64,000 nucleotides of DNA from Minisyncoccota bacterium (GCA_017991375.1 JAGOQP010000003.1:17525-81524); one strand, 5' to 3'; counted from the stretch's first letter, positions 5,645 to 50,727 are shown. Notes: a model not told the origin generated them from the letters alone. Numbers and translations: made by a program.

Positions 5645-6045
5645 AAGTGTTTATAAAAGGTTTTTGGAAACAATGAGAAGGATGTAGAGCAGGAGAAGCT
5701 CAAACGAGAGAGCGCTCACATGGCATGTGAGAGGTTGAGGTTTGAATCCTCACTCCTGCGCCACACCTAAAAATCAATATCGAGAGAGGGGATGTGATCG
5801 TTTAATGGTAAGACGTTCGGCGATCCTTTAGGTCTGTGCTCCCGCGCGGATCAGAGGAATCATCTTCCTCAAGGAGGCCTCCAGGAAGAAGATCTAAGAT
5901 TTGCCGAATATGAGAGTTCGAAGCTCTCGAGCGTCCCCTCTCCCGATCAATAATTGCACACCGTCACGATTATTAGTGGCTAGCCGCACTCTAAAGGTTG
6001 CTAATCTGAATCTGGGTTGGCTCCTTCTCATTGTTTCCAAAAAAT
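5645..6045 (+). other. intervening sequence or intron-like insertion in 23S helix 45
   Basis: About 400 nt are inserted between conserved ..AGTACCGAAG.. and ..GGTAGGAGAGCATTCC... The insertion is closed by a perfect 19-nt inverted repeat, TTTGGAAACAATGAGAAGG at 5663-5681 and CCTTCTCATTGTTTCCAAA at 6021-6039. No credible ORF lies inside. Confidence 0.6.
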
Positions 6046-7554: not shown

Positions 7555-7588
<34 letters not shown>

Positions 7589-7632
7589 CTCTATCTGCTG
7601 CAGGCGTTGACGCTTGAGGGAGGTTGGCTCTA

Positions 7633-8388
7633 GTAAGAAATTGCTACTTTCCCGAGTAATCGGGAATGATAATATGGCTAATAACGGTGAACTCTTAACT
7701 GTTCTGGTTCGTTGATAGCTACAACTACATGTCGGTCCGTTAGTTGTGGTACAATTTACTTGAGGACCAGTAAATTAATTAAGACAATACCGTGGGAAGT
7801 CGATCAAAAACAAATCTAGCTTACATAGCTGGTTTTCTTGATGGCGATGGAAGTCTAATGATGCAAATCAAAAAGCGTACTGACGGAATCAAAAAATTCC
7901 GATTTATGCTCACTATTTGTTTGTATCAAGATTCAAGACATGATAAACCTTTGTGGTGGATCAAAAAACAATTTGGTATCGGGTATATTTCCAAGAGGAA
8001 AGATCATATAACCGAATTGAGAATTAATGGTTTTAAGCAAGTCCGAACTATTCTTGAAGAATTACTTCCGTATATTCGCTTTAAAAGAAAGCAAGCGATT
8101 GAAATAATTAAAGCTGCGCGTATTCTTGAAAATAGAAAGGTTAGTGTCAGGAATACAAAAAAACTTGTTGATTGTATAATTACTATTCAAAAAAACAATT
8201 ATGCGACCAAAAGCAAACGCAGCAAAAGTGAGTTATATAGTGTTTTAGGTTTGACCCCGTAACGACTGATTTCCAATGATATATTGGAATGAAATAGAAA
8301 CTTTTTAGTTTTTATGATATGCCATCCCCCGGCGCTTTGTCGGGGTGAAGATATAGTCTGCGCACGTAGTGATACGTGATATCGTGAC
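7633..8388 (+). mobile_element. group I intron in the 23S rRNA
   Basis: About 755 nt interrupt the universally conserved CTAGTA|CGAGAGGACC sequence. The 23S resumes at ..GACGAGAGGACCGGG at about 8388. The insertion encodes a LAGLIDADG ORF. Confidence 0.75.
7792..8262 (+). CDS. LAGLIDADG homing endonuclease (intron-encoded)
   Basis: Single LAGLIDADG motif LAYIAGFLDGDGS near the N-terminus; 156 aa; located inside the 23S intron. Confidence 0.85.
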   Translation: MGSRSKTNLAYIAGFLDGDGSLMMQIKKRTDGIKKFRFMLTICLYQDSRHDKPLWWIKKQFGIGYISKRKDHITELRINGFKQVRTILEELLPYIRFKRKQAIEIIKAARILENRKVSVRNTKKLVDCIITIQKNNYATKSKRSKSELYSVLGLTP

Positions 8389-8715: not shown

Positions 8716-8830
8716 CTTCCTGGTGATTTATTAGAGCATGTACCACCTCTTCCCATTCCGAACAGAGAAGTGAAAGTGCTCTAACCTGATGGTACTTGGT
8801 TTTCCAGGGAGAGTAGGGTTCGCCGGGATA
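8716..8830 (+). rRNA. rrf: 5S ribosomal RNA
   Basis: CCTGGTG...CCCATTCCGAACAGAGAAGTGAAAG...AGAGTAGGG..GCC matches the 5S consensus. It is flanked by a 13-nt inverted repeat, CTGCGCGCAATAG / CTATTGCGCGCAG, that looks like a processing stem. Confidence 0.9.
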
Positions 8831-28242: not shown

Positions 28243-28267
28243 TCCATGGCGAACGAATGACTACGAA

Positions 28268-28293
28268 TGGGAAGGAATCATTAATCTTTCATC
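28268..28293. repeat. left inverted repeat of the pair bounding the 28.27-29.76 kb segment
   Basis: GGAATCATTAATCTTTCATCCTTAAT. Its reverse complement matches 29728-29760 across a 20-nt identical core TTAATCTTTCATCCTTAAT. Confidence 0.6.
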
Positions 28294-28498
28294 CTTAATT
28301 ATTGACCGCACAGTGCTTATCCTTAATCATTAATCGCACACTGTCGACCCATAACTCGTTCCACATTTATCATTCACGTTTCACTAAAAAGGCTATCCTT
28401 GACGGAAAGCTTTTTTTGTAGTACGTTTGTTTTTAGCATTCTGACAATGTGTCCCGAGTCAACAAACAAACCAGCCAGAGAAAGAGGGGAGAAACGCT

Positions 28499-28927
28499 AT
28501 GTCTCATTACCCAATTTCTGACTGTACCAAGTGTGACGTAGCGACTTGTATTCACAGGAGAGCTGCGTACGTAGAAAAAACAACGCAGAGATTTTCGGTT
28601 TCTCATCATCAGAGAAAACCAGTATGCGGTAGGATTTCTTTGCCACAAGTAGGTATTGAGAGCGATTGCAGAGCTGAGGTTTTCAATATGACAAAAGAGG
28701 CGCTCCGACGCATTTCTTTTCACGTCCGAGCTTCGCGTGCTCGCGAGATTTTTGTTCTTGTGTTGTTAGAGGAAATTCGTTCAACCATTGTTGGTCGTTA
28801 CCACGAGAACAGCGCGATGGGAATGATCGGCGATGAAGTGATGACGTTGTTACAGGATCTTGTGGCTCACGAAAGCTCGCAAGCTTCACCGCCATCCGCT
28901 CAAAAGAGCGACACTTCTTCTAGGTGA
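28499..28927 (+). CDS. hypothetical protein
   Basis: RBS GAGGGG 8 nt upstream; 142 aa; no recognisable family. Confidence 0.45.
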   Translation: MSHYPISDCTKCDVATCIHRRAAYVEKTTQRFSVSHHQRKPVCGRISLPQVGIESDCRAEVFNMTKEALRRISFHVRASRAREIFVLVLLEEIRSTIVGRYHENSAMGMIGDEVMTLLQDLVAHESSQASPPSAQKSDTSSR

Positions 28928-28956
28928 GCGCCTTCTAAGGAATTTCAGAGGGGGCT

Positions 28957-28992
28957 TGACAAATCTTTTGTAGTGTGCTAAGATGTATCTCG
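28957..28992 (+). promoter_or_regulatory. sigma70-type promoter driving the GC-rich locus
   Basis: TTGACA, a 17-nt spacer, then TAAGAT. Confidence 0.5.
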
Positions 28993-28994
28993 TA

Positions 28995-29697
28995 CACTAC
29001 AACGGAGGGAAGATGCACAGGCGCCCAAGAGACAACCCGTACTAGCTACTCAGGACAAGCCGCTCTGGCACGGTATTCGCTCACTCCACGGTTTGGGGGA
29101 GCGAAGCGGAAAGGGCATAGGTACTCCATCTGGGGGATGCTCTTTCGTGCCGTGCCGCCACTGCGCTACAGTGTCATCGTCGACGCTGTAGCACGGCCGC
29201 CCCATGCGGCGGCAGAGAGGAGGGCACTGTAGTGCCCATCGTCGAGGTCCGAGGTGGACCTTAGCCCGCTAAGATAGCACGATCGCCCCAAGAGGATTTT
29301 ATTAAAGTAGACCTCTTGGAGAAGGAAAGAACCAAAGGATCAGCATGTCAAAGGCGGGCGAGGGCAAAGCCCATGCGTCCCCTCCCTTCTCTACCTAAGA
29401 AGAAACGGCATGACTCACTACGAGTCGTCTGCCGTCTCTTAGGTCAAACCCTGCGGGAAGAATGCTGGCTTGCCAGGAATCTTCTCGCGACAAGCGCGAA
29501 CCTCGAAACGAAAAAGGTTCTCGGTGCCCCGTGTGTGACACGGGCGCACCGAGACCACAACCACGAGGAGCTCAACAAGAGCTTTAGTCGCCGATACAGC
29601 GAGCGCGTAGCACACTCTCGACACTTGCGGTCCGGTGGAATGATTGAAGCCGGAACCGTAGCCCTGCACCACCTGGTGTGGGGCGTTTTTTTATGCG
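28995..29697 (+). ncRNA. candidate large structured non-coding RNA (about 700 nt; identity unknown)
   Basis: GC content is far above the surroundings. It contains many near-perfect GC-rich hairpins, for example GCCGCC..GGCGGC, GGGCACTGTAGTGCCC, CCAAGAGG..CCTCTTGG and GGTGCCCCGTGTGTGACACGGGCGCACC. No ORF exceeds 130 aa, and the translations are Arg-rich nonsense. It ends in the terminator CCACCTGGTGTGGGGCG followed by TTTTTTT. Confidence 0.4.
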
Positions 29698-29727
29698 ATT
29701 AACGACGAATGTGGAAAAAGCAATTGG

Positions 29728-29760
29728 CTACAATTAATGATTAAGGATGAAAGATTAACG
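29728..29760. repeat. right inverted repeat of the pair bounding the 28.27-29.76 kb segment
   Basis: CAATTAATGATTAAGGATGAAAGATTAACGATCC, whose reverse complement is GGATCGTTAATCTTTCATCCTTAATCATTAATTG. Confidence 0.6.
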
Positions 29761-29818
29761 ATCCCCCCTGTTTTTTTAGGTTAAGGATTAATAGTCAACG
29801 ATAAACTATTTCTCTCCG

Positions 29819-30547
29819 CTATTCCCTCACCAATATCATCAGTACGATACCCGCAATAAAAATGAAAAAGTTTAATATAGATTTTCCCAAATGTTTTTCT
29901 TTTCGTATTTCTGGCATCAAATCTGAAGCGGCAATATAAATAAATCCTCCCGCGGCAAATGGCAATAAGTAGGGAAGTATATGTTCAAGAGGTGTGCGCA
30001 CTAGATATCCCGCTATACCTCCCAATACTACAAAGAGCGATACGGTGTAATTGGCAATAAGCGCTTTAAGGCGATTAAACCCCGCGTGAAGCAACACGCC
30101 AAAATCTCCAATTTCTTGAGGAATCTCATGCAACGCAATGGCGATTGTTGTGGCTATTCCGAGAGGAATGTCGACCAGAAATGAGCTTGCGATCACAAGG
30201 CCGTCTATAAAATTATGAAGTGAATCGCCAAATAAATTCATGTGGCCGAGCGTGTGTACTTCACATATTCCTTTGTGACAGTGCCGCCAGTGGAGAATTT
30301 TTTCCATTAAAAAGAAAAAAACAAAAGCTCCCAAGGTGATGATAAAAAGCATTTCGGGGTGAATTTTTTCCGCTGCCTCGGGGAGTAAATGTATAAAAGC
30401 GCCGCCAATAAGCGCTCCAGCTGAAAACGAAACAAGATAAATAGTGATAGCGGGAAGCGACTCCTCCTTTTTTACATACAAAAAAGCAACGGCGATAAAT
30501 ATACACAGCGTTATCGAAAACGTCGCTAGTAAAATAAATAGAAGCAT
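29819..30547 (-). CDS. zupT: ZIP family metal (zinc) transporter
   Basis: HNFIDGL and HEIPQEIGDFGVL motifs; multi-TM. Confidence 0.8.
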   Translation of the reverse strand: MLLFILLATFSITLCIFIAVAFLYVKKEESLPAITIYLVSFSAGALIGGAFIHLLPEAAEKIHPEMLFIITLGAFVFFFLMEKILHWRHCHKGICEVHTLGHMNLFGDSLHNFIDGLVIASSFLVDIPLGIATTIAIALHEIPQEIGDFGVLLHAGFNRLKALIANYTVSLFVVLGGIAGYLVRTPLEHILPYLLPFAAGGFIYIAASDLMPEIRKEKHLGKSILNFFIFIAGIVLMILVRE

Positions 30548-30575: not shown

Positions 30576-30845
30576 CTACATTCCCAAAAATTCAAGTAGT
30601 TTATAAACCACAAACGCCGGCCATACCGCGGCCTTCAACACTCCGAGCACCCCGACCCAAAACGTATCCGCGTGCTGGATAAAATATACAGCCGCTCCAA
30701 TAAAGCCGATACCATAAAGTCCACACGAGGCCCCTGCTCGGTGGCTCTTTTTTGATCCGCACCATTTTTTAAAGCACGAGCAACATTCGTTGCATTGCTG
30801 AGTGCATGCACACTGTTCTTTTTCCATATAGGAGACATTATACAC
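30576..30845 (-). CDS. Cys-rich small membrane protein
   Basis: N-terminal CACTQQCNECCSCFKKWC followed by two TM helices. The start is ambiguous: GTG at 30845 or ATG at 30827. Confidence 0.45.
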   Translation of the reverse strand: MYNVSYMEKEQCACTQQCNECCSCFKKWCGSKKSHRAGASCGLYGIGFIGAAVYFIQHADTFWVGVLGVLKAAVWPAFVVYKLLEFLGM

Positions 30846-30867
30846 CCAAAACGTTGATGGTCAAAAA

Positions 30868-31758
30868 TTATGACAGAGATTTTCTTTTTATCCACTCAAT
30901 AAGAAAGAATACGCCGGTTATAACTGCCGGGCCCGCAATTAATACATACCAACTCCAATGACGATGAAGTCCCACCATCCATACGTAATAGAGCGCAAAA
31001 CCAAAAAACGCAATTGCGCCTACTAGAGGCTTTTTCCACGCAAATATAGTTGCGACAAGAACAACCAAAGGGATGATAAGATGGATAAGGCCGCCAAGAA
31101 TCATATTCCACCCGAGCGGTCCAGAAAACCCATCAAACGAGAATAAAAGCAAAAATCCGACAAACAATAGGGCTAGTATTCGTGGTGTCCAATAAAGTAA
31201 CGAATTATGCATAGTAGTGTGTGTAAGATGTGTGTGATGAGTATTGTCCCATTGAATGATTCGTTTGTTAAGTAGGGGAGAAAAATGATTTTTGTATCGT
31301 TTTTGGACTTCGGGTAATTTCCAATCTTCTCCAGTAATTTGTTTTCTGCACATAGGGGAATCGCACTGGCATTTCCATGACGATCGGTAGTCGCCATCAT
31401 CTTCCCAAAGAGCATAATCAGAAGTAATTTCCTCGCCGCTTGCGATAGCGCGCTTTGCGACGAGAGTGTATGTATCACTCATCCAGGTATTTGCGTCGCA
31501 GGAATGGTTGATAAAATAGCCTCGATCGACACCCCGATCTTCAACACTAAATACATCATCATCCCATTGTATTGCCAGTTTTCCACCAACCGTTTTTGCC
31601 TTTAGGGCTTCTTCTTTGTTGACGTAGTTTCCTCCCCACACAATTACTTTTTCTCCTGGGGCAATATTTTCAACAGCAAAAAGCCCCTTGCCGTATTTCT
31701 TGGTTTCTCGTAGTTCTATTTTTGGGCTTATCCAATCTTCTTGCGAGGGAGTAGTCAT
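30868..31758 (-). CDS. SET-domain protein fused to a C-terminal multi-TM domain
   Basis: N-terminal GKGLFAVENIAPGE...RGYFINHSCDANTW...EEITSDY plus post-SET CQCDSPMC; the C-terminal half has 4-5 hydrophobic helices. Confidence 0.7.
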   Translation of the reverse strand: MTTPSQEDWISPKIELRETKKYGKGLFAVENIAPGEKVIVWGGNYVNKEEALKAKTVGGKLAIQWDDDVFSVEDRGVDRGYFINHSCDANTWMSDTYTLVAKRAIASGEEITSDYALWEDDGDYRSSWKCQCDSPMCRKQITGEDWKLPEVQKRYKNHFSPLLNKRIIQWDNTHHTHLTHTTMHNSLLYWTPRILALLFVGFLLLFSFDGFSGPLGWNMILGGLIHLIIPLVVLVATIFAWKKPLVGAIAFFGFALYYVWMVGLHRHWSWYVLIAGPAVITGVFFLIEWIKRKSLS

Positions 31759-31817
31759 GGCGGTTTTGTGATGTGCTTTGATTGTTTCTAATTAAAAATT
31801 CTTTTTAAAATACGCAC

Positions 31818-32756
31818 CTATCTTGGAAAATCTTCCATTTTCATCTCATCTTTTAATTGTTGCAATTTCTTTCGCATATCGCGATCATTAGGTTGCTCTT
31901 CTTTAATACTGTCTTGAAACTCATTCTTTTCGTCGCTATCCTCAGTAGATGGGGGATTGAGCATATTCCGCGCTTTTTCAAGAAGCTTATATTCTTTGGC
32001 GATTTCCATGCCTTTTTCATTATCAACTCCACCACACTCAAATTTGAAATTTCCAGAAAAACTAAATCCTATTCCAGAAGAACCTGCTGAACAAGATTTT
32101 TCAATTGAAAAATAATCAGGGGTGCTAAAAGCATCACCTAGAGAGAAAGCCGAGCAAAACGTTTTTGCGTCTCCTGTTGTTATGTCAACAGTCTCCTGAG
32201 TAAATCCCATCACAGTCCCTTTGCTTTTTGTCTCTATAACTACCCAATCATTCCTCTTTCTTTCTGGAGCGGGGTATATGAGCTTAGCATTATAATCAAT
32301 TCTAACTGGCGCGGTAAACGGGTTATAGTACTCAACCATCAACCCGCTCTCCTCTATGTCAACCGTCCCTTCTCCAATAGAGGCCTCTACATGCCCTGTG
32401 CCGGAGTAGGTATAACGGATTTTTCTCCCCAAAATAAATAATTTATTTTTTTCCTTATCAAAGACGTTTATATCCTCTGAAATATATTCAATAGAGCCTT
32501 TTTCATTACCAAGCACCGAGCTGGTGTATGGGCCTTTTATTTCTTCTTGGCTTTGACAAAAAGAGTACTTATCTTCATCGGCAAAATCTTCAAAACGCGA
32601 TTCTTCAAGTGTTTCGCGTGTTTCTTCATCTAATTGCAAATCGCCCTGTCTTCGAGTAGCTTCTTCAAAGCCAGAGTTATTCAAAAACACTCCAGTAGCA
32701 ATAGCGCCACCTACAACAACTATGGCTCCGCCAATAAGGAGGGTGTTTTTGCCCAT
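31818..32756 (-). CDS. membrane-anchored hypothetical protein
   Basis: N-terminal TM helix GGAIVVVGGAIATGVFL; acidic extracellular body; 312 aa. Confidence 0.55.
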   Translation of the reverse strand: MGKNTLLIGGAIVVVGGAIATGVFLNNSGFEEATRRQGDLQLDEETRETLEESRFEDFADEDKYSFCQSQEEIKGPYTSSVLGNEKGSIEYISEDINVFDKEKNKLFILGRKIRYTYSGTGHVEASIGEGTVDIEESGLMVEYYNPFTAPVRIDYNAKLIYPAPERKRNDWVVIETKSKGTVMGFTQETVDITTGDAKTFCSAFSLGDAFSTPDYFSIEKSCSAGSSGIGFSFSGNFKFECGGVDNEKGMEIAKEYKLLEKARNMLNPPSTEDSDEKNEFQDSIKEEQPNDRDMRKKLQQLKDEMKMEDFPR

Positions 32757-32759
32757 ATA

Positions 32760-33266
32760 TTACAATCCACAGGCGTTAGTAAAAGATTCGCAGTCAAAGG
32801 CGTCAATCATGCAATTAATTTTATTCGCGCTCCAAGATGAGCATTCTTTCATGCAAGAATTCAGACCATCCGCAAACAATGCCTCGGTTGCATTGGGAAC
32901 AAGGGTTAGGCATTTGCCAACATAACTTCCACATGCCGCCTCGCACCCGCTTGCATTCTTATCAACTGTTTTTGGAGCTATTGCTTCTGGAATTAACATG
33001 TCGGCAATCAAATCGGGTCGCGAAGTTATTTGTTCGCAACTTTTAGATTCTTTTAAATGCTTCTTTGATTCTTCGCTTACCTTTGAGCAGGCGTTATTGC
33101 AGGTTCTTTCATTTACCAACGAAGGACAAGTTTGGCTGGCTGCTTGGCAAACATCTTTGCACGCAAGATCGCCCTGACTTGCCGATTTATCTGTTGTAAG
33201 TAAAAGGACTCCACCTCCAACCACCACTACCGCCAACAAAGCTCCTAAAACAATTTTTATACTCAT
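32760..33266 (-). CDS. Cys-rich secreted or membrane-anchored protein
   Basis: N-terminal signal/anchor; about 18 Cys in 140 aa of mature region. Confidence 0.55.
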   Translation of the reverse strand: MSIKIVLGALLAVVVVGGGVLLLTTDKSASQGDLACKDVCQAASQTCPSLVNERTCNNACSKVSEESKKHLKESKSCEQITSRPDLIADMLIPEAIAPKTVDKNASGCEAACGSYVGKCLTLVPNATEALFADGLNSCMKECSSWSANKINCMIDAFDCESFTNACGL

Positions 33267-33613: not shown

Positions 33614-35572
33614 TCAAGATTTAATTCCAAAAATTCTTAACAATTCACTACCGACGACCACATTTGGTAAATGTTGTGTGACCTCTCCGAAAAAAGGGCT
33701 TGCTTGTGTTCGCGCACTTCTGCCTCGTTGTCCTCCCATTATTCTGACATTCAATTTCATAGCCACACCAAAATCTATATCTCTAAACGACGACAATATC
33801 AGCGTCTGTTTTGGGCGCGTAATTGCGACGAAGAAAAGTCTTTTTGCTTCAGCTCGTAGACGATCTAACTCCGCTGTCTGGTTCTCGTTGATCAATTTCC
33901 GTTCATCTTTGATGGTCGGCACAAGACCTGCTACACATCCGATTACAAAGACTACTTTTGACGTTAGTCCCTTAGACTTGTGTAAGCTCATTATCCGTAC
34001 ATATCCTGCATCATTTGTAACCTCTGGAGAGCGAATTCTATCTTGCAGTTTAGTAAAAAAGGTTTTCAAATCCATCTCCTCATCAATTTTTATAGTATCA
34101 ATTATGCTCAATAAAACTTCTATATCAGAGGGGTCAGTCCGATCAAATAACGATGCGACGATTTCAGTAACACTCTTGCCATCGAGACTCGTTTTGACAG
34201 ATTCAATATCATCATATCGTCTGACGATTTCGTCTGAGCGCGAAATAGCAATTGTTCCGGCTTTAATATCCAGGATGACTTCTTTTGGTGTCTTGTTTAG
34301 CTCCTCTGCTTTTAGGAGAATTTTTTCGTATGTTCCTTGCAAAACCGTCGGCATACCAAGAAGCGCGCGCAAAGCAATGCGGTCATCAGGGTAAGCAATA
34401 TAATTTAATAAAGAGTAAGCCCTTTTTGCCTTTTCCGTATCCAACGCTTCTTCTTGAAAAAATGTGTTTGAATTGATTGCGAAAGAAGATTTTAATTCAT
34501 CCCTAAGCGCATAGCCCAACTGACGGCGCGGAGAAAGTATCAGTATGTCTTCGGCTCGTACTTCGCGTGTAGCATCTGAAATCATAGCGCTTACAATTTT
34601 TGCTGTTCCTTTTGTTTCCTCATCGATGTTGTTCCACTGGACTGCATGAACCTCACCTTCGCCATTTTCAGGATGTTCACCGAGTTTCTTAGGGTGTTCG
34701 CCTAAAAAGTAACCCATCAATTCATTTGCCAGGCGGACTACTTTTTTCGGGCATCGACGACAAATCTGAAGACTTATATCCTCAAGGGGATTGTGAGTCG
34801 TCGGAAATTCTATAATTCCGTCGGGGTGAGCGTGTTTAAAACTGTAGATGGACTGATCGTCGTCGCCGATAACCAAAAGCTCTCCATTGCTTGCAAATAG
34901 ATCAATAAGCGATTGCTCCGCTTTGTTAAGGTCTTGGTATTCATCAACCAAAATATAGTCGTACTGATTTAATTCTTGAGCGGTAGGATTGTTTCTTAGA
35001 TAATCGTATGTGATTGGCACAAGTTCACCAATAAGCATCGCTCTATGAATACTCAGCCAACGCAAAAGTCGAGTCTTAAATCTTGCATCATCAGCAGATT
35101 GAATTACTCCCGGGGTGTCTTGCTGTTGTCGTGCAAACGCACTTTCGTACGCTAATAGTAATTTTTCAGTATTTCTTTTTCCATTAAAATCTCCCTTGAG
35201 ATCTTCCAAAAGAAAATTCGTTTCAAAATCCATCAAAGGGCGCGGAGTTCGATTCGTTATTTCTAGCACTTGCTGTCTTCGAAGTATTTCAAAACAAAGA
35301 CTATGCAATGTGCGTGCGCGAACATTTTCCGCGCCAGGGGTCTGAGCCGCCGCCAAGTCTTTCTTTAGTGCATCAGCCGCCACATTCGTGAAAGTAACAA
35401 CGAGTATGCGAGATGGGTCTTTTCCTTCCTCCAAAAGTCGCATTACTTTCCTTTGCAAAGCATAACTTTTCCCCGTTCCGGGTCCGGCGAGAACACGCAT
35501 CGCCGATCCTTGATGGCTCGCGATTCGTAAGTGATTTCCGTCAATGTCCTGATTCCATTTAGGCATAGTCAT
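33614..35572 (-). CDS. UvrD/Rep-family (SF1) DNA helicase
   Basis: GPGTGKS (Walker A), VDEYQD, SLHKSKGL, VAITRPK motifs. The start overlaps the upstream hsdMS stop by 14 nt. Confidence 0.85.
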   Translation of the reverse strand: MTMPKWNQDIDGNHLRIASHQGSAMRVLAGPGTGKSYALQRKVMRLLEEGKDPSRILVVTFTNVAADALKKDLAAAQTPGAENVRARTLHSLCFEILRRQQVLEITNRTPRPLMDFETNFLLEDLKGDFNGKRNTEKLLLAYESAFARQQQDTPGVIQSADDARFKTRLLRWLSIHRAMLIGELVPITYDYLRNNPTAQELNQYDYILVDEYQDLNKAEQSLIDLFASNGELLVIGDDDQSIYSFKHAHPDGIIEFPTTHNPLEDISLQICRRCPKKVVRLANELMGYFLGEHPKKLGEHPENGEGEVHAVQWNNIDEETKGTAKIVSAMISDATREVRAEDILILSPRRQLGYALRDELKSSFAINSNTFFQEEALDTEKAKRAYSLLNYIAYPDDRIALRALLGMPTVLQGTYEKILLKAEELNKTPKEVILDIKAGTIAISRSDEIVRRYDDIESVKTSLDGKSVTEIVASLFDRTDPSDIEVLLSIIDTIKIDEEMDLKTFFTKLQDRIRSPEVTNDAGYVRIMSLHKSKGLTSKVVFVIGCVAGLVPTIKDERKLINENQTAELDRLRAEAKRLFFVAITRPKQTLILSSFRDIDFGVAMKLNVRIMGGQRGRSARTQASPFFGEVTQHLPNVVVGSELLRIFGIKS

Positions 35573-38027
35573 TCAAAACTCCGGAGATTTTCTTTTCCAT
35601 CGCTTCAATCAGATTGCGATTTGAGGCGATAATTTCTTCCTCTTTTTCCATTTCCTCGACCATTTGTTCTTGGACTTCGAGAGGCGGGAGCGGGATTTTT
35701 AGATCTTTGATTTGCTTAATCGTGTACTGTTGTAATGTTGCACCTCCTTGCTCCGTCTTAATCTTTCCTTGAATATCTTCAGAGTTTAAAATGTGCAAAA
35801 GAAATCTCGGCAAAATCTGCTCCTTTGATCTAAGCCAAGCCAATTGAGAATTAAGATTTGCGGAATCATACTCTTTATCAATTATTGCCACTTTCCCAAT
35901 TTCTCCACGATTAGAAAAAATAACATCATTCGTTTTGAGATGTCCCTTCTTTAGTTTGTTATGTTTTTCTTCGCTTATGAATTTCATGTCCGTAGAATCA
36001 ATTTTCAAATTCTGAATATTTGTCGCACGAATAAAAGGTACTCCTTGGTTGACCATTTCAGATGATTTTGGATAGTTCGAAGAATGGTTTCCGTCTCCTA
36101 CTTCACAAATGTCACCAATTTTTGCCATGGGAATATCACCTAATTTTCTAAGCGACTGGCCAAAATATCGTCTCTCTCTCTCTAGATTTTCGATGATTGC
36201 TTTCGCGTGCTCGATGGCGTTCTGCTTGACCTCAATCCGCTCAACGATTTCTTTCTGCACCTCAATCGGCGGGAGCGGGATTTTTGTATCCTTTAGTTTT
36301 GAGAAATGCCTCTTGTAACCGTCTGATTCAATCGGTTTTAATTTAAGATAGAAGTATAGATACTTAGGTAGAAGTTCGTCATTTGTTTTGATTATCTTAA
36401 TTCCATCAGCCCCTTGAGCAAACGGCTGTTCAAGATATTTAACCGCACAGGTATGATCACCAAAAATCACAAGAGGATTATTTGCATTGACTAGCGCAGA
36501 CTCATCGTCAGTCCATCCCGAAATTTCTTCTTGTGATTGATCAATAATCGGATATTTACCATTATTACCAAATTCACTTTTTTGAATCTTTGTTGGTGGA
36601 GTAATTGTCTCTATCAACTCACCAATTTTTCTAACAGGCCACTTCTGATTTTTCTGCTCGCCAAGATTATCCAGCCGATATCGTTCCGCCGAAAGGTTAT
36701 AGTCGCCACTTTGCGCTATTTGCTCTTTTGATATTTCATACGCAAAAAGACTATTTTCCTGAAGCCACGGGTTTTTCATTCCCGTTTCAATCGCTATTCT
36801 TTGCCCCTTGAGCACTTTTGTCGCGTCTACTTCGTTATCGGGGCGGACGAGATCATTTCTATCAATCGGTCGGCGCTGTGCGCCAAGATCAAAGCCGTCA
36901 TTCAAAACCCGCACGAATAAAATCTTATCCGTCTTTTTTGCGACCGTATTATCAAAAAAGAGAATACTCGTTTTTACGCCCGCATACGGATTGAACACGC
37001 CCTGCGGAAGCGACACGACTGCAAACAAGCCGTCCTCAACCAGAATCTTTCGAAGCTGTTTATACGCTCCAGACGACTGGAAAATAATGCCCTCCGGCAC
37101 GATGATACCGGCGCGTCCATTTGGGCGCAGATGCTCCTTGATGTAATCAACGAAAAGCACCTCCGCGCGGTTTGCCTGCACGGAAAATCGCTTGTGCGGG
37201 CGAATACCGCCTTGTGGAGACATAAACGGCGGATTCGCCATAATGACATCAAAACTTTCATCCCATTTCTCATCGCTTGAGAGCGTGTCGTATTCAAAAA
37301 TCTTTGGCTCGGCGAAGCCATGCAAATACATATTCACTTTTGAGAGCTTTACCATGTCGGGCGAAATATCGTAGCCGACAAGATTATTCATCAATTTTTT
37401 CTTTTCGTCCGGAGTGAGGGGTTTGTCTTTTTGCTGTTTGAGAATGTTTTTGTATGCACTGATGAGGAAGCCAGCCGTACCGCACGCAGGGTCGAGAATC
37501 GTGTCGCCCTTTTTCGGCTCAATAACATCAACGATAAAGTCGATGATATGCCGAGGCGTGCGGAATTGCCCCGCATCGCCCTGCGAGCCGAGAATCGAGA
37601 GGAGATATTCAAAAGCGTTGCCGAGTTCTTCGCTGTGGTTGTAAGTGAAGCCGTTTATTTCTTTCAAAAAGAGCGTGAGCGTTTCGGGGCTTCGATACGG
37701 CAGAAAAGCATCTTTGAAAATATCGCGGAACAATTGCGGGATGTGCGGGTTTTGCGACATTCGCGCGACGGCTTCGCCGTACAGCTCCAATCGCTCATGT
37801 CCGCCAAGCTTTGGGTCAAGTAATTTCGTCCATGCGTACTTTTGAAAACCGTTGGTGAAAAATCGCGCCTTGCCACCAAGCTCGATAGCTTCCTTGTCCA
37901 TATCATCCATAAATTTATAGATGAGTGCGGTCGTGATTTGCTCAACCTGTGCTTTTGGGTCAGGGACTTTACCGACAAGAATTTGCCGAGCGGAATCTAT
38001 TTTTCGTTTTGTTTCTTGGGTAAGCAT
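35559..38027 (-). CDS. type I restriction-modification fused methyltransferase-specificity subunit (HsdM-HsdS fusion)
   Basis: N-terminal HsdM: FRTPRHIIDFIV, DPACGTAGFL, ANPPF motif IV. The C-terminal roughly 380 aa has two TRD-like regions, each ending with the HsdS conserved repeat (IPLPPIEVQKEIVERIE and IPLPPLEVQEQMVEEME). Confidence 0.8.
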   Translation of the reverse strand: MLTQETKRKIDSARQILVGKVPDPKAQVEQITTALIYKFMDDMDKEAIELGGKARFFTNGFQKYAWTKLLDPKLGGHERLELYGEAVARMSQNPHIPQLFRDIFKDAFLPYRSPETLTLFLKEINGFTYNHSEELGNAFEYLLSILGSQGDAGQFRTPRHIIDFIVDVIEPKKGDTILDPACGTAGFLISAYKNILKQQKDKPLTPDEKKKLMNNLVGYDISPDMVKLSKVNMYLHGFAEPKIFEYDTLSSDEKWDESFDVIMANPPFMSPQGGIRPHKRFSVQANRAEVLFVDYIKEHLRPNGRAGIIVPEGIIFQSSGAYKQLRKILVEDGLFAVVSLPQGVFNPYAGVKTSILFFDNTVAKKTDKILFVRVLNDGFDLGAQRRPIDRNDLVRPDNEVDATKVLKGQRIAIETGMKNPWLQENSLFAYEISKEQIAQSGDYNLSAERYRLDNLGEQKNQKWPVRKIGELIETITPPTKIQKSEFGNNGKYPIIDQSQEEISGWTDDESALVNANNPLVIFGDHTCAVKYLEQPFAQGADGIKIIKTNDELLPKYLYFYLKLKPIESDGYKRHFSKLKDTKIPLPPIEVQKEIVERIEVKQNAIEHAKAIIENLERERRYFGQSLRKLGDIPMAKIGDICEVGDGNHSSNYPKSSEMVNQGVPFIRATNIQNLKIDSTDMKFISEEKHNKLKKGHLKTNDVIFSNRGEIGKVAIIDKEYDSANLNSQLAWLRSKEQILPRFLLHILNSEDIQGKIKTEQGGATLQQYTIKQIKDLKIPLPPLEVQEQMVEEMEKEEEIIASNRNLIEAMEKKISGVLNDYA

Positions 38028-38030
38028 AAA

Positions 38031-40586
38031 TTACATGAATGTATTCACGGAGACATAGTCTTTCACATATTCGGGAATAACTTCGCGGAAGCCGTTCAGT
38101 TCTTTGTAGTCCGCCATTGAAACTTTCGGATTTGTTGCGAATCGACCATATTCCTTTGACTCCACAATTTCCCGAATCTCGTTGTCGGTGATGTATGCCT
38201 TGAGGAAATTCTTGATCGGGTAGTAATACTTGCTGTCCGGCCTGTAGATGGAGATAAACTTTTCAAACTCCTCCTCAAGAAGCTCGTCCTTATTCTTGAA
38301 TTTATCAAGGCGACCGAATACGCGATCTATGACTTCCCGCAAAGAAAGGCGGCGGTCTACTTTTGCAGATTTTCGCAGTTTCTCTAGGTTGTAGAAGTCC
38401 TCGGGCTTGTCGAAGATTTCAGTCTTCACATACTCCTCGATGGCTTGCATGTCGCCCTGCACGTATTTTTCTTTTACGAAACTGTCGGACTTGAGTACAT
38501 CCTCAAATTTCTCAAAAAGTTTGCGATCTACTTTCATTCCCTCAACACCAATCGCTTTTTCGTTGAAAGTCTTTAGCGGGTCAGGGGTTCCGATAACTAC
38601 TTCATCAATATCAATCGGCTCTCCGCCTGTTCCACCAGTGCCTACTTTCGGCACTTTTAGAACTTCGTCGTAATTAAACTTTTCCTCGAAATACTCGCAG
38701 TTGGCGAAAAAGTCGAACAGTTTGAATTTATCTTTTTCTGTCTTTGTTTCCTCCGCCTCTCCGTCCTCACGATGTTCAAATGAGAAATTGAATTTGCGAG
38801 TACCACGCCCTTTGATCTGTATGAAGTCAGTCGGCGAGAAAATCGGGCGCATAAGCCCAAGGTTCAAAATATCTTGGCAGTCATAGCCGGTCGTCATCAT
38901 GCCGACAGTAACGCAAACGCGCGTCTTGCTTGATTTATATCCATCAAGCCACTTCGTGTAGCCGTTCAGGTTGTTGTTTGCAAAATTGATAGTGAATTGC
39001 TGTGCGTCGGGAATATTTGAAGTAACTTGCACGGCAAAATCCGAATTGTATTTGCCCGGCCACATTTTGTCCGCAAGCTGGTTGAGCATTTGCGTGATTT
39101 TTGTCGCGTGTTTTTGGCTTACGCAATAGATAATGCCTTTGCCAATCTCTCCGCTTACTGGATCGGGGAGCGCGTTTTTGAGAAATGTTTCGCAGAAAAT
39201 CGTGTTTGTCTTGTCGGAGAAAAATTTCCTCTCAAAATCCGTTTGGTAAAAAGTCTGTTCCTCTTTGCCTTCCTCGGTGTCAATAATGAGCGAATATCCC
39301 TCGTCAGAGAGAAGTTGCGTAGTGATTTCCGTGCGCGCGTCAGCAACGACCGGATTGACCAAGAAGCCGTCTTTTACGCCATCGAGTAAACTGTAGCGGA
39401 AAGTCGGCTCGCCGTTTTCACAGCCGAAAGTTGTGTAAGTATCAAGGAGTTGGCGCCGCTCCCATGATCGCGGGTCTTTCTCATTCAATTTTGCAGGGTC
39501 TATGCCTTTAAGATAATTTCTAGGAGTAGCGGTGAGTCCGAGCTTGTAGCCGACAAAGTATTCAAAGACCGCACGGCTATTTCCACCGATTGAGCGATGG
39601 GCTTCGTCAGAAATGATGAGGTCAAAATCCGTTGGAGTGAAAAGTTTTTGGTATTTGTTGCCGGATGAAAGACTTTGTATCGTAGAAACGACAATCTCCG
39701 CCTTGCGCCAATCGTCTCGATTTTCTTTATAGATAACGGTCGTGTAATCCTTGGAAAGCCACTTTTTGAAATTTTTCGCCGCCTGATCTTCAAGCTCGAT
39801 GCGGTCTACGAGAAAGAGAATCCGTTTTGCATTTCCGGTCTTGAGAAAGAGCTTGATAACGGCGGCGCAGGTAAGGGTCTTTCCAGTTCCCGTCGCCATC
39901 TCAAAGAGATAGCGATCTTTTCCGTTTTGCGCCCACGCTTGGAGTGCCTCGATAGCTTTTAGCTGATACGGGCGCAAAAATTTCAAGTCGTATTCCTTGA
40001 TCAGTTCTGATTTCTGCTTTTCATCTGTCCAGCGAGGGTCTTTTTGATAGACAGGGTTTTGGGTGAGTGCGATAAAATCGGGCGCGAGTTTTTCTTCGTT
40101 CAGCCTTTTTGAGTCCGGCTTGAAGGATTCAATATGCTTGAGTGATTCCGGCGTAGGGAAAACGGTAATAATTGACGGATTGCCTCGTTCCAAATCCCAA
40201 AAATAATGAATGTTGCCGTTCGAGAGAATAATGAATCGAACATTTTGAGACTGTGCATACCGGCGAGCTTGCTCTTTGCCGTTGAGTGGGTCTTTATCTT
40301 CTGATTTTGCTTCTAGCACGACATACGGAAAACCCTTTTCATCGAGCAAAAGAAAGTCGATAAAACCGTCCTTCGTTTTATCAAAATCGTTTCCAAATTC
40401 ATCAACGGCGGATTTTGTGAGCTTCACATTGTTTTCCAAAACAATATTCGCCACGCCGTTTTCATCGTCAAAAAACCTCCAGCCGGATACTTGAAGCAAG
40501 TTGTTTATTTTTATTCTTGATTTTGCTTCTTTTTGCATATAATTGGCTAAATAATCCTTATTTTGCTTGGGTTCAAACTTGGACAT
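38031..40586 (-). CDS. hsdR: type I restriction enzyme R subunit (HsdR)
   Basis: N-terminal PD-(D/E)xK core DFLLLDEKGFPYVVLEAK; SF2 helicase motifs MATGTGKT and IISDEAHRS; 851 aa. Confidence 0.85.
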   Translation of the reverse strand: MSKFEPKQNKDYLANYMQKEAKSRIKINNLLQVSGWRFFDDENGVANIVLENNVKLTKSAVDEFGNDFDKTKDGFIDFLLLDEKGFPYVVLEAKSEDKDPLNGKEQARRYAQSQNVRFIILSNGNIHYFWDLERGNPSIITVFPTPESLKHIESFKPDSKRLNEEKLAPDFIALTQNPVYQKDPRWTDEKQKSELIKEYDLKFLRPYQLKAIEALQAWAQNGKDRYLFEMATGTGKTLTCAAVIKLFLKTGNAKRILFLVDRIELEDQAAKNFKKWLSKDYTTVIYKENRDDWRKAEIVVSTIQSLSSGNKYQKLFTPTDFDLIISDEAHRSIGGNSRAVFEYFVGYKLGLTATPRNYLKGIDPAKLNEKDPRSWERRQLLDTYTTFGCENGEPTFRYSLLDGVKDGFLVNPVVADARTEITTQLLSDEGYSLIIDTEEGKEEQTFYQTDFERKFFSDKTNTIFCETFLKNALPDPVSGEIGKGIIYCVSQKHATKITQMLNQLADKMWPGKYNSDFAVQVTSNIPDAQQFTINFANNNLNGYTKWLDGYKSSKTRVCVTVGMMTTGYDCQDILNLGLMRPIFSPTDFIQIKGRGTRKFNFSFEHREDGEAEETKTEKDKFKLFDFFANCEYFEEKFNYDEVLKVPKVGTGGTGGEPIDIDEVVIGTPDPLKTFNEKAIGVEGMKVDRKLFEKFEDVLKSDSFVKEKYVQGDMQAIEEYVKTEIFDKPEDFYNLEKLRKSAKVDRRLSLREVIDRVFGRLDKFKNKDELLEEEFEKFISIYRPDSKYYYPIKNFLKAYITDNEIREIVESKEYGRFATNPKVSMADYKELNGFREVIPEYVKDYVSVNTFM

Positions 40587-44380: not shown

Positions 44381-44559
44381 AGAAGACAAAAATAAACGAT
44401 TAAGGATGAATGAGTTACACATAGAACGGTAAACGTGGAACGAGCTATAGATCAATGCCGTGCGGTTATCGATTAAAATTATCTCCCCGGCTTTGGTTAA
44501 GGATTATTATTCTATTCCATTGTTGGTTGTAGGTTGTTGGTTGTAAGTTAATTATCATC

Positions 44560-48891: not shown

Positions 48892-49182
48892 AGACCCCTT
48901 GCGGGGGAGCTGCCTTATAGATTTGTAGTGTCCACACTATAGCCAACCGATGGATGGGAACATGTGGAACAATCTATAAAGGGCTAACGCTCAAATATAG
49001 ATTAGCATAAATTCTATAAAAAACAACAAATTTTGTGGATAAGTTAAAAACGAATCCTAATATGAGCTAGGTTTTATTAGGTTTTTATAAATAGGATAGT
49101 ATTTACAGATATATAGATAATTATTGACTCCACTCTCAAAAAGAGGCACTATTTTAATATACGGGCCAAAAGCCCTATTTCT

Positions 49183-50703
49183 ATGGAGCAGAAAAATCCG
49201 ACATTCTATCGCGCGATGGAAATAATACCTGCGGTGCTCGCGTGGACCACTATCATCGCCATGGTTGTGTTATCCGCGTTTATTCCGGCTTATGTTGCCG
49301 TGTTTATTATCCTCTTTGATATCTATTGGCTTCTTAAAACTATATATCTTTCTTTACACCTGAGAAACAGCTTCACCATCATGAAGCGCAACACAGATAA
49401 AGATTGGAGAGTTTTTTTGGAAACCGACATACGCACAAAAGCTCTATGGGAACGCGTACATCATGTGGTGATCTTGCCGATGTACAATGAGCAATACGAA
49501 GTGGTTCGTGAAACATTTGAACGTCTTTCTCGAGCGAACTATCCACTTGATAAGTTATTTGTCGTACTCGCGCTTGAAGAGCGAGCGGGAGCGCACGCTC
49601 AAGACATTGGAGAAAAAATAAAAAAAGAATTTGGAGACATGTTTGGTGCGTTTTTAGTAACCACTCACCCAGCCCATATTCCCGGGGAACGCCCTGGTAA
49701 AGGATCAAACGAGTCATATGCCGCAGAGATTGTTAAACGTGACGTCATAGACGCGCGGGGCATTGAGTACGCAACACTGTTGGTATCGGTATTTGACGTT
49801 GACACGCAGGTGTATAAGGACTACTTCGGTATTCTTACCCATACATTCTTAACCACGGAGGATAATCAACACGCAAGCTATCAACCCATTCCGTTGTTTC
49901 TTAACAACGTGTACGATTCGCCCGCGCTCGCGCGCATCGTTGGATTTTCGGGAACGTTTTGGCATTTAATGCAACAGTCACGTCCCGAAAAACTAACCAC
50001 CTTCTCATCTCACTCAATGCCTTTTCAGGCGCTGTTAGATATTGGATATTGGCAAAGAGATATTGTATCGGAGGATTCGCGTGTATTTTGGCAATGCCTT
50101 ATTCATTATAATGGAGCGTATAGAGTTGTCCCGCTTTTTTATCCGGTATCTATGGATGCTAACGTCGCGCCCACGTTTTGGGGAACGATGGTAAATTTAT
50201 ACAAACAGCAACGTCGGTGGGCATGGGGAAGTGAGAATATCGCGTACATGATGACAGGGTTTAAGAATAACAAAACGATTCCGTTTAAAACAAAATTTTT
50301 TTGGGCGTTCCATTTGATAGAGGGATGCCATTCATGGGCGACAAATTCTCTGATTATTTTCGCGCTGGGGTGGTTACCCATCTTGCTCGGGGGGCAGTTG
50401 TTTCGAGTAACTATGCTCGCGTATAATCTTCCGCAAATTACCAGGATTATTATGAACTTAGCGTCTCTGGGAATTATTAGCTCGGCGGCGCTTTCGATGA
50501 CCATATTACCTCCAAAGCCCGAATGGTTTAGAAAAAAACATTATGTGTGGTATTTTATTTCGTGGGTGCTGATGCCCATCACGCTCATTGTATTTGGATC
50601 ATTCGCGGCTCTGGACGCGCAGACGCGTCTGGCGTTATCGGGGAAATTCCGTTTGGATTTTTGGGTTACACCGAAGCATCGCCGAGACGGCGGTAAACGA
50701 TGA
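49183..50703 (+). CDS. family 2 glycosyltransferase, membrane-embedded, processive type (QxxRW)
   Basis: N-terminal TM helices, a GT2 catalytic region, LYKQQRRWAWGS (the Q(Q/R)xRW motif of cellulose/chitin-synthase-like enzymes), and C-terminal TM helices. Confidence 0.75.
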   Translation: MEQKNPTFYRAMEIIPAVLAWTTIIAMVVLSAFIPAYVAVFIILFDIYWLLKTIYLSLHLRNSFTIMKRNTDKDWRVFLETDIRTKALWERVHHVVILPMYNEQYEVVRETFERLSRANYPLDKLFVVLALEERAGAHAQDIGEKIKKEFGDMFGAFLVTTHPAHIPGERPGKGSNESYAAEIVKRDVIDARGIEYATLLVSVFDVDTQVYKDYFGILTHTFLTTEDNQHASYQPIPLFLNNVYDSPALARIVGFSGTFWHLMQQSRPEKLTTFSSHSMPFQALLDIGYWQRDIVSEDSRVFWQCLIHYNGAYRVVPLFYPVSMDANVAPTFWGTMVNLYKQQRRWAWGSENIAYMMTGFKNNKTIPFKTKFFWAFHLIEGCHSWATNSLIIFALGWLPILLGGQLFRVTMLAYNLPQITRIIMNLASLGIISSAALSMTILPPKPEWFRKKHYVWYFISWVLMPITLIVFGSFAALDAQTRLALSGKFRLDFWVTPKHRRDGGKR

Positions 50704-50727
50704 AAGATTAACGATTAACGATGGCTT

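Follow-up and report, generated by a model that had tools for sequence, protein, structure and literature searches.

An open reading frame on the minus strand of a contig from Paceibacteria, a lineage of CPR bacteria, raises two questions: has a SET-domain methyltransferase really become one protein with a membrane domain, and do the genes around it have anything to do with the enzyme? The window that we analysed is a stretch of 64,000 nucleotides, and an ORF check found all five genes of the cluster on the minus strand where the initial annotation had placed them. Bacterial SET proteins are known mainly as soluble enzymes or secreted effectors. Hardly anything is known, to our knowledge, of their roles in free-living and CPR bacteria, and a literature search on membrane-bound bacterial SET proteins found none.

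Domain layout and topology of the fusion protein

The gene (30868..31758, minus strand) is a single ORF of 296 codons in which Pfam profiles recognize both a SET domain and DUF7670, so the initial claim of a SET domain joined to a multi-transmembrane domain in one gene stands. Its NCBI counterpart, from a Candidatus Pacebacteria metagenome-assembled genome (MAG), consists of the same 296 amino acids and is annotated as 'SET domain-containing protein-lysine N-methyltransferase' (MBP6855637.1). The architecture is unusual in that the arrangement of the domains is new, the component domains being already known.

Residues 1-168 (31255..31758, minus strand) comprise the SET domain, the post-SET region and a family-specific C-terminal helix, as supported by Pfam SET, PDB and Foldseek matches. 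The PF00856 SET profile matches aa 23-115 (E = 7.6e-11; score 42.8 bits, gathering cut-off 22.4), and the SET core is complete as originally described: the motifs G23xG25 (G23-K-G25), N84-H85-S86-C87, E110..D114-Y115 (EEITSDY115) and post-SET C130xC132x4C137 are all present and invariant. Cofactor, catalytic and zinc residues are invariant across an alignment of 31 relatives, including the four cysteines of the predicted post-SET zinc site (C130, C132 and C137, together with C87 of the NHSC motif). The nearest solved sequence is the MLL1 SET domain (E = 3.3e-9, over aa 20-140), whose motifs line up with those of the fusion. A Foldseek search with the AlphaFold model retrieved the SET structures of MLL4, ASH1L, MLL1 and NSD1 (E about 1e-6, probability 1.00); 234 PDB chains matched the AF2 model at E ≤ 0.001, and the 50 best-listed are all SET-domain enzymes. 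The pLDDT of this half is mostly 64-93.

MLL/SET1-type domains (MLL1, 7u5v/2w5y; MLL4, 4z4p) are thus the best solved-structure relatives of the fusion's SET domain, and share with it the GxG, NHSC, ELxxDY and post-SET CxCx4C motifs. Identity, however, is about 28%, the fusion has a minimal single domain with a membrane domain attached, and its organism has neither WDR5/RbBP5/ASH2L partners nor histones. Fusion aa 1-168 are 55-66% identical to bacterial SET/post-SET proteins that stand alone and are about 170 aa long (PF00856; for example P0002-P0085, annotated as 'SET domain-containing protein' with or without '-lysine N-methyltransferase'), which have the same motif set as well as the C-terminal segment ITGxDWKLPxxQxRYxxHFSPLLNKRI. 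Unlike the fusion, these proteins end 3-9 residues past NKRI167 and are soluble, and none of them has a DUF7670 domain.

The second half of the protein, aa 183-296 (30871..31212, minus strand), is a four-helix transmembrane bundle belonging to DUF7670. PF24709 matches aa 183-294 with E = 7.3e-23 (81.6 bits, cut-off 29), covering positions 3-115 of the 118 in the profile, and the residues that are invariant in the family (W8, P10, R11, D27, H44 and W59) are kept. The initial annotation was right about multiple transmembrane helices, but their number is four rather than 4-5, both by hydropathy and in the AF2 model of this half (pLDDT 92.3, pTM 0.83). At 50-60% identity to the stand-alone DUF7670 proteins of Paceibacteria, which are small four-TM proteins, the domain is a typical member of its family. 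We found no structural relatives of DUF7670 in the PDB or BFVD, and a literature search found no paper that mentions it.

Between the halves lies a 14-residue linker rich in His and Thr and encoded by CA-rich DNA (aa 169-182, QWDNTHHTHLTHTT; 31213..31254, minus strand). AF2 pLDDT falls below 50 at aa 177-183, and the predicted interdomain geometry is unreliable (full-length pTM 0.52; the full-length alignment used the reduced set A7, because with many SET sequences MAFFT put DUF7670 homologues onto the SET half).

Lysine and arginine residues number six on the side of the membrane that holds the N-terminus, the loop between helices 2 and 3 and the C-terminus, versus one on the opposite side, and the 182-aa folded N-terminal part is not preceded by a signal peptide. 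By the positive-inside rule and general principles, we infer an inner-membrane protein with both termini inside and the SET domain in the cytoplasm. The initial annotation had left open whether the SET domain lies inside or outside; it is predicted to lie inside, and a cell-surface enzyme is unlikely for this reason. SAM and a Cys4 zinc site, on which a SET domain depends, are both typical of cytoplasmic proteins.

Occurrence and origin of the fusion

The same fusion ORF is present in at least five independent assemblies (the NCBI MAG and at least four Logan assemblies), as five variants of 294-296 aa. Two further sequencing runs contain it at 100% identity and another at 98.3%, and identical or near-identical forms are found in loci L001, L097, L098 and L101. 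The frame is kept in variants of 95% and 90% identity, and no variant has a stop codon, despite three substitutions within the linker. Because the same ORF recurs in independent assemblies as distinct variants, it cannot be the product of an assembly error. The reading in which the SET and transmembrane proteins are truly two genes joined by an assembly, frameshift or gene-calling error is effectively refuted by this uninterrupted ORF, seen at 90-100% identity, even though other genomes nearly always encode the halves separately, Met183 matches the stand-alone DUF7670 start codon, and a gene-caller error does exist nearby (Logan calls the adjacent mini-protein gene of L001 in a wrong frame). 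The initial annotation had itself raised the possibility that the transmembrane region is a separate gene; it is separate almost everywhere else, but the junction here is real.

Comparison with the 90%-identical L101 allele, at a dS of about 0.25 and a protein divergence of about 10%, gives dN/dS ratios of 0.20 for the SET half and 0.16 for the DUF7670 half. Transmembrane helices 1-3 show 10 synonymous and no nonsynonymous changes, versus three nonsynonymous and no synonymous changes in the linker. Both halves are under purifying selection, although the signal in DUF7670 would look alike if this half were translated separately from Met183 in the same frame.

Only a single narrow group of Paceibacteria has the fusion, which is a local oddity. 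Among 87 indexed homologues only the lineage's own protein (P0001) covers both halves, and the same is true of the best 150 of 4,436 matches in an HMMER search of 1.84 billion representative sequences. We found no second SET-DUF7670 protein outside the clade in the indexed search, among those best 150 HMMER matches, or in a scan of GTDB genomes. Nor is a SET gene present at about 84 DUF7670 loci other than the lineage's own near-identical contigs: tblastn of 89 loci did not find SET beside DUF7670 as a separate gene at any of them, and the two co-occur only in L001, which is a near-identical contig of the fusion's own lineage. Conversely, DUF7670 is absent from six loci that contain SET homologues, as is the ZIP transporter gene discussed below. 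DUF7670 stands alone in 79 of 80 GTDB loci (L010-L089), and only in L011 is it part of a fusion. There it precedes a C-terminal alpha/beta hydrolase, whereas here it follows an N-terminal enzyme.

Met183 of the fusion aligns with Met1 of stand-alone DUF7670 homologues 113-120 aa long, which points to Met183 as the ancestral DUF7670 start codon and to the loss of a stop codon between two once-adjacent genes. Stop-codon loss is the most likely mechanism. A SET gene of about 170 codons and a DUF7670 gene of about 115 codons would have been adjacent, 20-35 nucleotides apart; loss of the SET stop codon would have joined them in frame, the former 3' tail of SET and the intergenic spacer would have become the His/Thr linker, which is probably what it is, and the old DUF7670 start codon would have been left as an internal methionine. 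The ancestral adjacency that this model demands is found in no other genome among the 89 DUF7670 loci and six SET loci. In the resulting protein the DUF7670 bundle would serve as a membrane anchor, with a helical tether holding the SET domain at the cytoplasmic face, where, with SAM as methyl donor, it would act on a substrate in the cytoplasm or close to the membrane.

Taken as a whole, our preferred explanation is a clade-restricted stop-loss fusion that anchors a cytoplasm-facing SET domain through DUF7670, with neighbouring genes that are ordinary and do not form a module; we give it a probability of about 0.72. An alternative that we consider unlikely, while taking it seriously, is that the join is real but neutral, so that each half goes on with its former function, unrelated to that of the other, and tethering adds nothing; DUF7670 may even still be made alone from Met183. 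The confinement of the fusion to one narrow clade and the free evolution of its linker speak for such a read-through, and a promoter-like sequence (TTAACA-17-TGnGACAAT, 9/12 consensus positions) lies about 30 nucleotides upstream of Met183. An internal start is feasible in this genome, where initiation can be leaderless or lack a Shine-Dalgarno site: Shine-Dalgarno sites are scarce, at 3 of 41 genes, and a -10-like box frequently adjoins the ATG. One-off fusions are also common in the SET family, whose members are sporadically joined to NUDIX, SDR (twice), GNAT, Ser-hydrolase, DUF4440 and cupin domains, and the DUF7670-hydrolase protein of L011 is a similar case. Because the family is sporadically fused to unrelated enzymes, the fusion may be opportunistic rather than adaptive. 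Against neutrality, the frame has been kept over the divergence separating the L101 allele, and at least four SET relatives (P0359, P0086, P0318 and P0296) have different hydrophobic or transmembrane regions of their own, suggesting that membrane attachment is tolerated or useful. The 9/12 promoter match, moreover, occurs at background frequency (14 such matches found versus 9.5 expected), and its -35 hexamer is forced by conserved L-N-K codons.

Possible substrates and roles

From its motifs and closest structural matches, the SET half is most likely a methyltransferase that uses SAM to modify lysine in proteins. That it instead methylates a small molecule or a lipid head group at the membrane seems to us distinctly improbable. 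BurB, a SET-domain methionine S-methyltransferase from Burkholderia (PDB 9l4t/9l4v), is among the matches (9l4t, E = 4.8e-5; 9l4v, Foldseek E = 4.2e-6, TM 0.58); it is a small bacterial SET enzyme similar in size and fold to the fusion's SET domain, and makes clear that a bacterial SET domain does not have to have a protein substrate (PMC12542666). The fusions of SET relatives to SDR, GNAT, NUDIX, cupin and hydrolase domains fit the same idea. BurB, however, is soluble, and its match is weaker and shorter than that of the MLL-type lysine methyltransferases. None of the lysine-methyltransferase motifs is missing from the fusion or its SET family, the post-SET zinc site included, and the locus of the fusion has no biosynthetic gene cluster and none of the DMSP or malleicyprol pathway genes.

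Stronger forms of protein methylation at the membrane can be imagined, in which the fusion is adaptive and DUF7670 either brings the SET domain to a particular partner in the membrane or is methylated itself, at its conserved lysines K242/K243 and K291/K293, which are predicted to be cytoplasmic. We regard this as a long shot. If it were true, lysine methylation would control some process at the membrane, for instance the uptake of metal by way of the neighbouring ZIP transporter or mini-protein, and the four SET relatives with hydrophobic regions would mark a wider, unrecognized class of membrane-associated bacterial lysine methyltransferases.

Under our preferred explanation of a DUF7670-anchored SET domain, the practical weight of the finding is modest, as it concerns one narrow clade and the idea of a surface module fails against related genomes. 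A naturally tethered SET domain under selection nevertheless suggests that the enzyme can work at the cytoplasmic face of the membrane, and it offers a small handle on the role of bacterial SET proteins. For DUF7670, the fusion and the L011 protein provide a first clue from context, that of an anchor with both termini inside that may serve cytoplasmic enzymes.

Neighbouring genes

Immediately downstream of the fusion gene is a gene for a mini-protein of 83 aa (30576..30827, minus strand), whose N-terminal tail is rich in cysteine (8 Cys) and whose core of two transmembrane helices is conserved. It is 100% identical to NCBI MBP6855636.1 (KBC26_01525). Its start is most likely at MEKEQ (30827), giving 83 rather than 89 residues; we prefer this start because it matches the identical NCBI protein and the homologues. 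The CxCxxxCxxCCxC tail lies beside a K/R-rich stretch and is predicted to be cytoplasmic, not extracellular. A sigma-70-like promoter, TTGACC-16-TATAAT (30837..30864, minus strand; 11/12 consensus), sits just upstream of the ATG, so the transcript would be leaderless or nearly so. The family has at least 401 homologues in CPR, DPANN and other phyla but no Pfam entry, and its two-helix core is conserved whereas the Cys tail is variable or absent. Beyond the mini-protein lies a gene for a ZIP/ZupT-like divalent-metal transporter of 242 aa (29819..30547, minus strand), as the initial annotation had recognized (PF02535, E = 1.7e-44; 152.8 bits versus 35.1); its match to the NCBIfam ZupT model (E = 6.7e-14, 51.8 bits) is below that model's cut-off of 252.

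On the other side of the fusion gene are two genes without a known family. One encodes an acidic protein of 312 aa with a single N-terminal transmembrane anchor (31818..32756, minus strand), and the other, 3 nucleotides away, a protein of 168 aa with an N-terminal transmembrane or signal anchor (32760..33266, minus strand). The initial description of both signal-anchored proteins as Cys-rich fits the 168-aa protein (14 Cys) but not the 312-aa protein (4 Cys). The 312-aa gene is found only in near-identical strains, a gene for a GDSL-type hydrolase taking its place in L101, and among the loci that we fetched the 168-aa gene is present only in L001. NCBIfam supplies no name for four of the five proteins in the cluster.

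The presence of a ZIP gene close to the DUF7670 domain suggests a unit for zinc homeostasis, in which DUF7670, the mini-protein and ZIP handle metal and the SET domain has been recruited, but we find this very improbable. In two related lineages of Paceibacteria (L005-L008 and L011) DUF7670 is encoded just upstream of Zur-ZnuABC, the domain has invariant Asp and His residues (D27, H44 and the RHWSWY loop), and mini-protein homologues occur near DUF7670 in L010, L039 and L086. Zinc genes (ZnuA, ZnuB, Zur or ZIP), however, lie close to DUF7670 in 3 lineages only, and about 3 of 84 independent DUF7670 loci have any zinc gene within 6 kb, which is roughly the chance expectation for a small genome. 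A candidate Zur box derived from L005 and L011 (TGCRAATnATTyGCA) has no match in the window, and in the two loci that we inspected elsewhere the mini-protein gene had unrelated neighbours that were not metal genes, its homologues often missing the Cys tail.

Still less credible is the proposal of the initial annotation that the cluster is a cell-surface or host-interaction module, with the SET enzyme displayed on the surface or delivered to a host together with the Cys-rich proteins, the mini-protein and ZIP. The organism does belong to the CPR, a group with many episymbionts; for both upstream neighbours a membrane anchor and an extracytoplasmic location are predicted, and the 59-nucleotide gap between the 312-aa gene and the fusion gene has no detected promoter, making co-transcription possible in this strain. 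Secreted effectors do exist among bacterial SET proteins (Legionella RomA/LegAS4, Chlamydia NUE and Bacillus anthracis BaSET; PMC3980110). These share a SET catalytic domain with the fusion, but they are soluble proteins, secreted into host cells and equipped with targeting modules, whereas the fusion is an integral membrane protein whose SET domain, with its needs for SAM and zinc, is predicted to be cytoplasmic; it has no secretion or nuclear-targeting features, and Pfam searches revealed neither ankyrin repeats nor an NLS nor any other mark of an effector. The mini-protein gene has a strong promoter of its own and unrelated contexts elsewhere. The fusion and the neighbouring gene cluster occur together only in contigs of 98-100% identity, and in the 90% variant the upstream neighbour is already another gene. 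The approximately 84 DUF7670 loci outside the lineage, the six SET loci and two mini-protein loci all lack the cluster, and clustering of the neighbours at 63 DUF7670 loci found no family in more than three of them. Neither the fusion nor the cluster is therefore conserved in related CPR genomes, and the neighbouring genes are ordinary neighbours, not a functional module.

PADLOC defence models matched none of the fusion, mini-protein, 312-aa and 168-aa proteins; their only matches were to adjacent Type I restriction-modification genes and a UvrD/GajB-like helicase. Two metagenome scans returned chance matches only as homologues of a further element of the window, a highly structured non-coding RNA candidate of roughly 700 nucleotides at 28991-29693.

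Architecture of the 296-aa protein

The 296-aa protein (30868-31758, minus strand) is most likely a clade-specific fusion that arose by stop-loss, in which a DUF7670 four-helix anchor would hold a SET methyltransferase at the membrane, facing the cytoplasm. Its gene comes from a Candidatus Pacebacteria/Paceibacterota MAG. The architecture is new but assembled from known parts, and the identical protein was already deposited (NCBI MBP6855637.1) and auto-annotated as "SET domain-containing protein-lysine N-methyltransferase".

The complete SET core recognized in the initial annotation is borne out by profile search, with Pfam placing SET (PF00856) at residues 23-115 (E = 7.6e-11, above the gathering score) and the functional motifs present. 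This half is 55-66% identical to stand-alone bacterial proteins of ~170 aa, members of a populous family. Across 31 aligned sequences, the columns without any variation coincide exactly with the functional positions–the SAM-binding motifs G23xG25 and N84-H85-(S)-C87, the catalytic motif E110..D114-Y115, and the post-SET zinc motif C130xC132x4C137–and the half ends in a family-specific segment terminating ...HFSPLLNKRI167. Modeled at full length by AlphaFold (pLDDT 82.1), the protein shows a SET half that matches the structures of MLL4, ASH1L, MLL1, NSD1 and BurB (E ~1e-6). By sequence, the closest solved proteins are MLL1-type SET domains (E = 3.3e-9), and BurB, a methionine S-methyltransferase, is also matched (E = 4.8e-5). 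Judged by motifs and model, the SET half is complete and probably an active enzyme; protein lysine is the favored substrate, and a BurB-like small molecule (PMC12542666) is possible. Other one-off fusions in the same family involve NUDIX, short-chain dehydrogenase (twice), GNAT, Ser-hydrolase, DUF4440, cupin and tandem SET-SET. Since at least four relatives (P0359, P0086, P0318 and P0296) carry unrelated hydrophobic regions, membrane attachment has arisen more than once in the family, each case being rare.

The other half, residues 183-294, is DUF7670 (PF24709, E = 7.3e-23, above the Pfam gathering score), for which searches of PDB and BFVD yielded no significant structural relative and the literature no mention. 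Residues 177-296 as a query retrieved 13 proteins of 113-132 aa (50-60% identity), every one DUF7670 alone, and when GTDB was scanned at one genome per species, relatives turned up in 245 species, spanning CPR, Anaerolineae, Planctomycetota, Acidobacteriota and others. The ORF consists of the DUF7670 domain only in 79 of 80 fetched loci; the single exception, L011, encodes a 410-aa protein with a C-terminal alpha/beta hydrolase attached.

The SET relatives end 3-9 residues past I167, and the internal Met183 aligns column-for-column with the start methionine of stand-alone DUF7670 proteins. Between the halves lies a 14-residue linker (QWDNTHHTHLTHTT) encoded by CA-rich DNA, the sole low-confidence stretch of the model (pLDDT <50 at residues 177-183). 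The simplest history would be a stop-loss in an adjacent gene pair, the SET stop codon having been lost where the genes lay 20-35 nt apart.

Hydropathy and the AF2 model concur on four transmembrane helices, so the multi-helix character noted earlier stands, with the number fixed at four instead of "4-5". Lys and Arg total 6 on the side of the N-terminus, loop 2-3 (WKKP) and the C-terminus (KRKSLS), versus 1 on the opposite side; no signal peptide precedes the 182-aa domain of the 296-aa protein; and SET requires SAM and a Cys4 zinc site. We therefore predict an N-in/C-in topology, with SET inside, on the cytoplasmic face. The L011 hydrolase would share that side of DUF7670, which fits a role for this domain as an anchor for cytoplasmic enzymes.

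Maintenance and distribution of the fusion

Three other sequencing runs contain the uninterrupted fusion ORF, two of them (L097 and L098) at 100% nucleotide identity and one (L001) at 98.3%, and the 90% cluster contains five distinct fusion variants of 294-296 aa. Among these are alleles at 95% and 90% identity, which stay in frame and largely keep the linker. Compared with the 90% allele (L101), dN/dS by the Nei-Gojobori method is 0.20 for SET and 0.16 for DUF7670; TM1-3 have 10 synonymous and no nonsynonymous differences, and the linker has 3 nonsynonymous and no synonymous ones. DUF7670 may in addition be translated separately, starting at the in-frame Met183; these data would look the same in either case. 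The promoter-like site directly upstream of Met183 is weak (9/12, at background frequency), and Shine-Dalgarno sites precede only 3 of the 41 longest ORFs in the window. An assembly or frameshift artefact is excluded, because the ORF, a SET domain joined to a multi-helix domain as first described, is intact across independent runs and variants, with selection on both halves.

The fusion is, from sequence searches, very local and clade-specific. Just one protein spans both halves, the cluster representative of the clade itself, whether among 87 indexed homologs or among the best 150 of 4,436 matches obtained by exhaustively searching 1.84 billion representatives; none of these 150 from outside the clade carries the fusion.

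Gene neighborhood

The five ORFs of the cluster are all present on the minus strand as annotated: ZIP (29819-30547), the Cys-rich mini-protein (30576-30845), the fusion, a 312-aa protein (31818-32756) and a 168-aa protein (32760-33266). The mini-protein is identical to MBP6855636.1 (KBC26_01525); its most likely start is the methionine of MEKEQ at 30827, which corrects its length to 83 aa. Two secreted Cys-rich proteins had been proposed, of which we retain one Cys-rich anchored neighbor only.

The initial annotation suggested that this cluster might be a cell-surface or host-interaction module, a reading borne out only in part. The fusion itself is genuine and unusual, but the module is not upheld: the cluster is not conserved, the upstream gene differs in L101 (a GDSL-type hydrolase), and the mini-protein is preceded by a near-consensus promoter of its own (TTGACC-16-TATAAT, 11/12), which ends 10 nt upstream of the ATG. 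In tblastn searches of the window's proteins against 89 loci, the SET, ZIP, 312-aa and 168-aa proteins recurred only in L001, a contig from the same lineage that is nearly identical; the later-fetched L097 and L098 have these genes too. Neighbors are unrelated at six SET-homolog loci, nothing recurrent emerged from clustering of DUF7670 neighbors, and no cluster protein matched defense models.

At least 401 proteins (P0101-P0220 among them) make up the mini-protein's family, which lacks a Pfam model and occurs in CPR, DPANN archaea, Thermoleophilia, spirochaetes and other groups. Its two-helix core is almost invariant (YGLGFIGAxxYFIQHAxTFWxGVLGVLKAxVWPA), and its N-terminal tail is variable, often rich in Cys and often free of it. 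The mini-protein's neighbors elsewhere are unrelated; DUF7670 is close by in three other loci (L010, L039 and L086), a weak signal. In L001 the Logan gene caller chose the wrong frame for it.

In two other, related Paceibacteria lineages (L011 6001-7233; L005 345-4046) a zinc-uptake locus, Zur-ZnuA-ZnuC-ZnuB, begins shortly downstream of DUF7670. Counting ZIP here, zinc genes are near DUF7670 in 3 of ~84 loci, roughly chance level. A perfect palindrome, TGCGAATCATTCGCA, precedes zur in L005, with a similar site in the zur-znuA spacer of L011; a candidate Zur box from those two loci is absent from the window.

Directly upstream, the cluster abuts a strain-variable defense island (33614-40586, minus strand) encoding Type I HsdR (851 aa), a fused HsdM-HsdS (822 aa) and a UvrD/GajB-like helicase (652 aa). 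Homology with the 98.3%-identical strain (L001 1-5400) ends at ~33539, and there AAA_13/SMC-like and other genes replace the island.

Other features of the window

A candidate large structured non-coding RNA of ~700 nt (28991-29693, plus strand) sits in an ORF-poor stretch (28250-29800) and has a higher GC content than its flanks. It has a promoter-like site (TTGACA-17-(TG)TAAGAT, 28956-28984, 10/12) and an intrinsic terminator (29661-29684, then T7). Region 28930-29700 folds at -345 kcal/mol, whereas shuffled versions give -273.5 +/- 6.4 (z = -11.3), and the two strands behave alike. It matched no Rfam family at E<=1, its small ORFs had no Pfam match, and two metagenome scans with 20-22-mers found no homologs. 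Two inverted copies of a dispersed intergenic repeat (30 nt, 90% complementary) flank it; the family occurs at 28274-28375, 29700-29765, 44391-44476 and 50696-50716, with core TTAAGGATGAAAGATTAACGAT / TCATCCTTAATYATT. The repeat seems to break short-read assemblies, because the L001, L097 and L098 contigs, from three other samples, all terminate exactly at it (~29733).

The 23S rRNA gene (4264-7650) is 3,387 nt long against a 2,925-nt model, with ~430 extra bases between model positions 882 and 1354 (especially 5300-6200 in the window). Unusually, this insertion contains a tRNA-Ala(GGC)-like gene (5689-5763) called by both ARAGORN and Rfam (53.5 bits). A LAGLIDADG-type motif (AGFLDGDGSL) occurs in a 156-aa ORF (7792-8262, plus strand) located after the 23S match and before the 5S gene (8718-8829, ~1 kb downstream of 23S); the window has no 16S gene. 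Among the 41 longest ORFs, many have a TATAAT-like box 5-12 nt upstream of the ATG, which together with the scarcity of Shine-Dalgarno sites suggests that leaderless or short-leader mRNAs are common in this genome. A DUF3800-V RNA motif (Rfam) lies at 48902-48997 on the minus strand, scoring 45.1 bits against a gathering score of 37.4.
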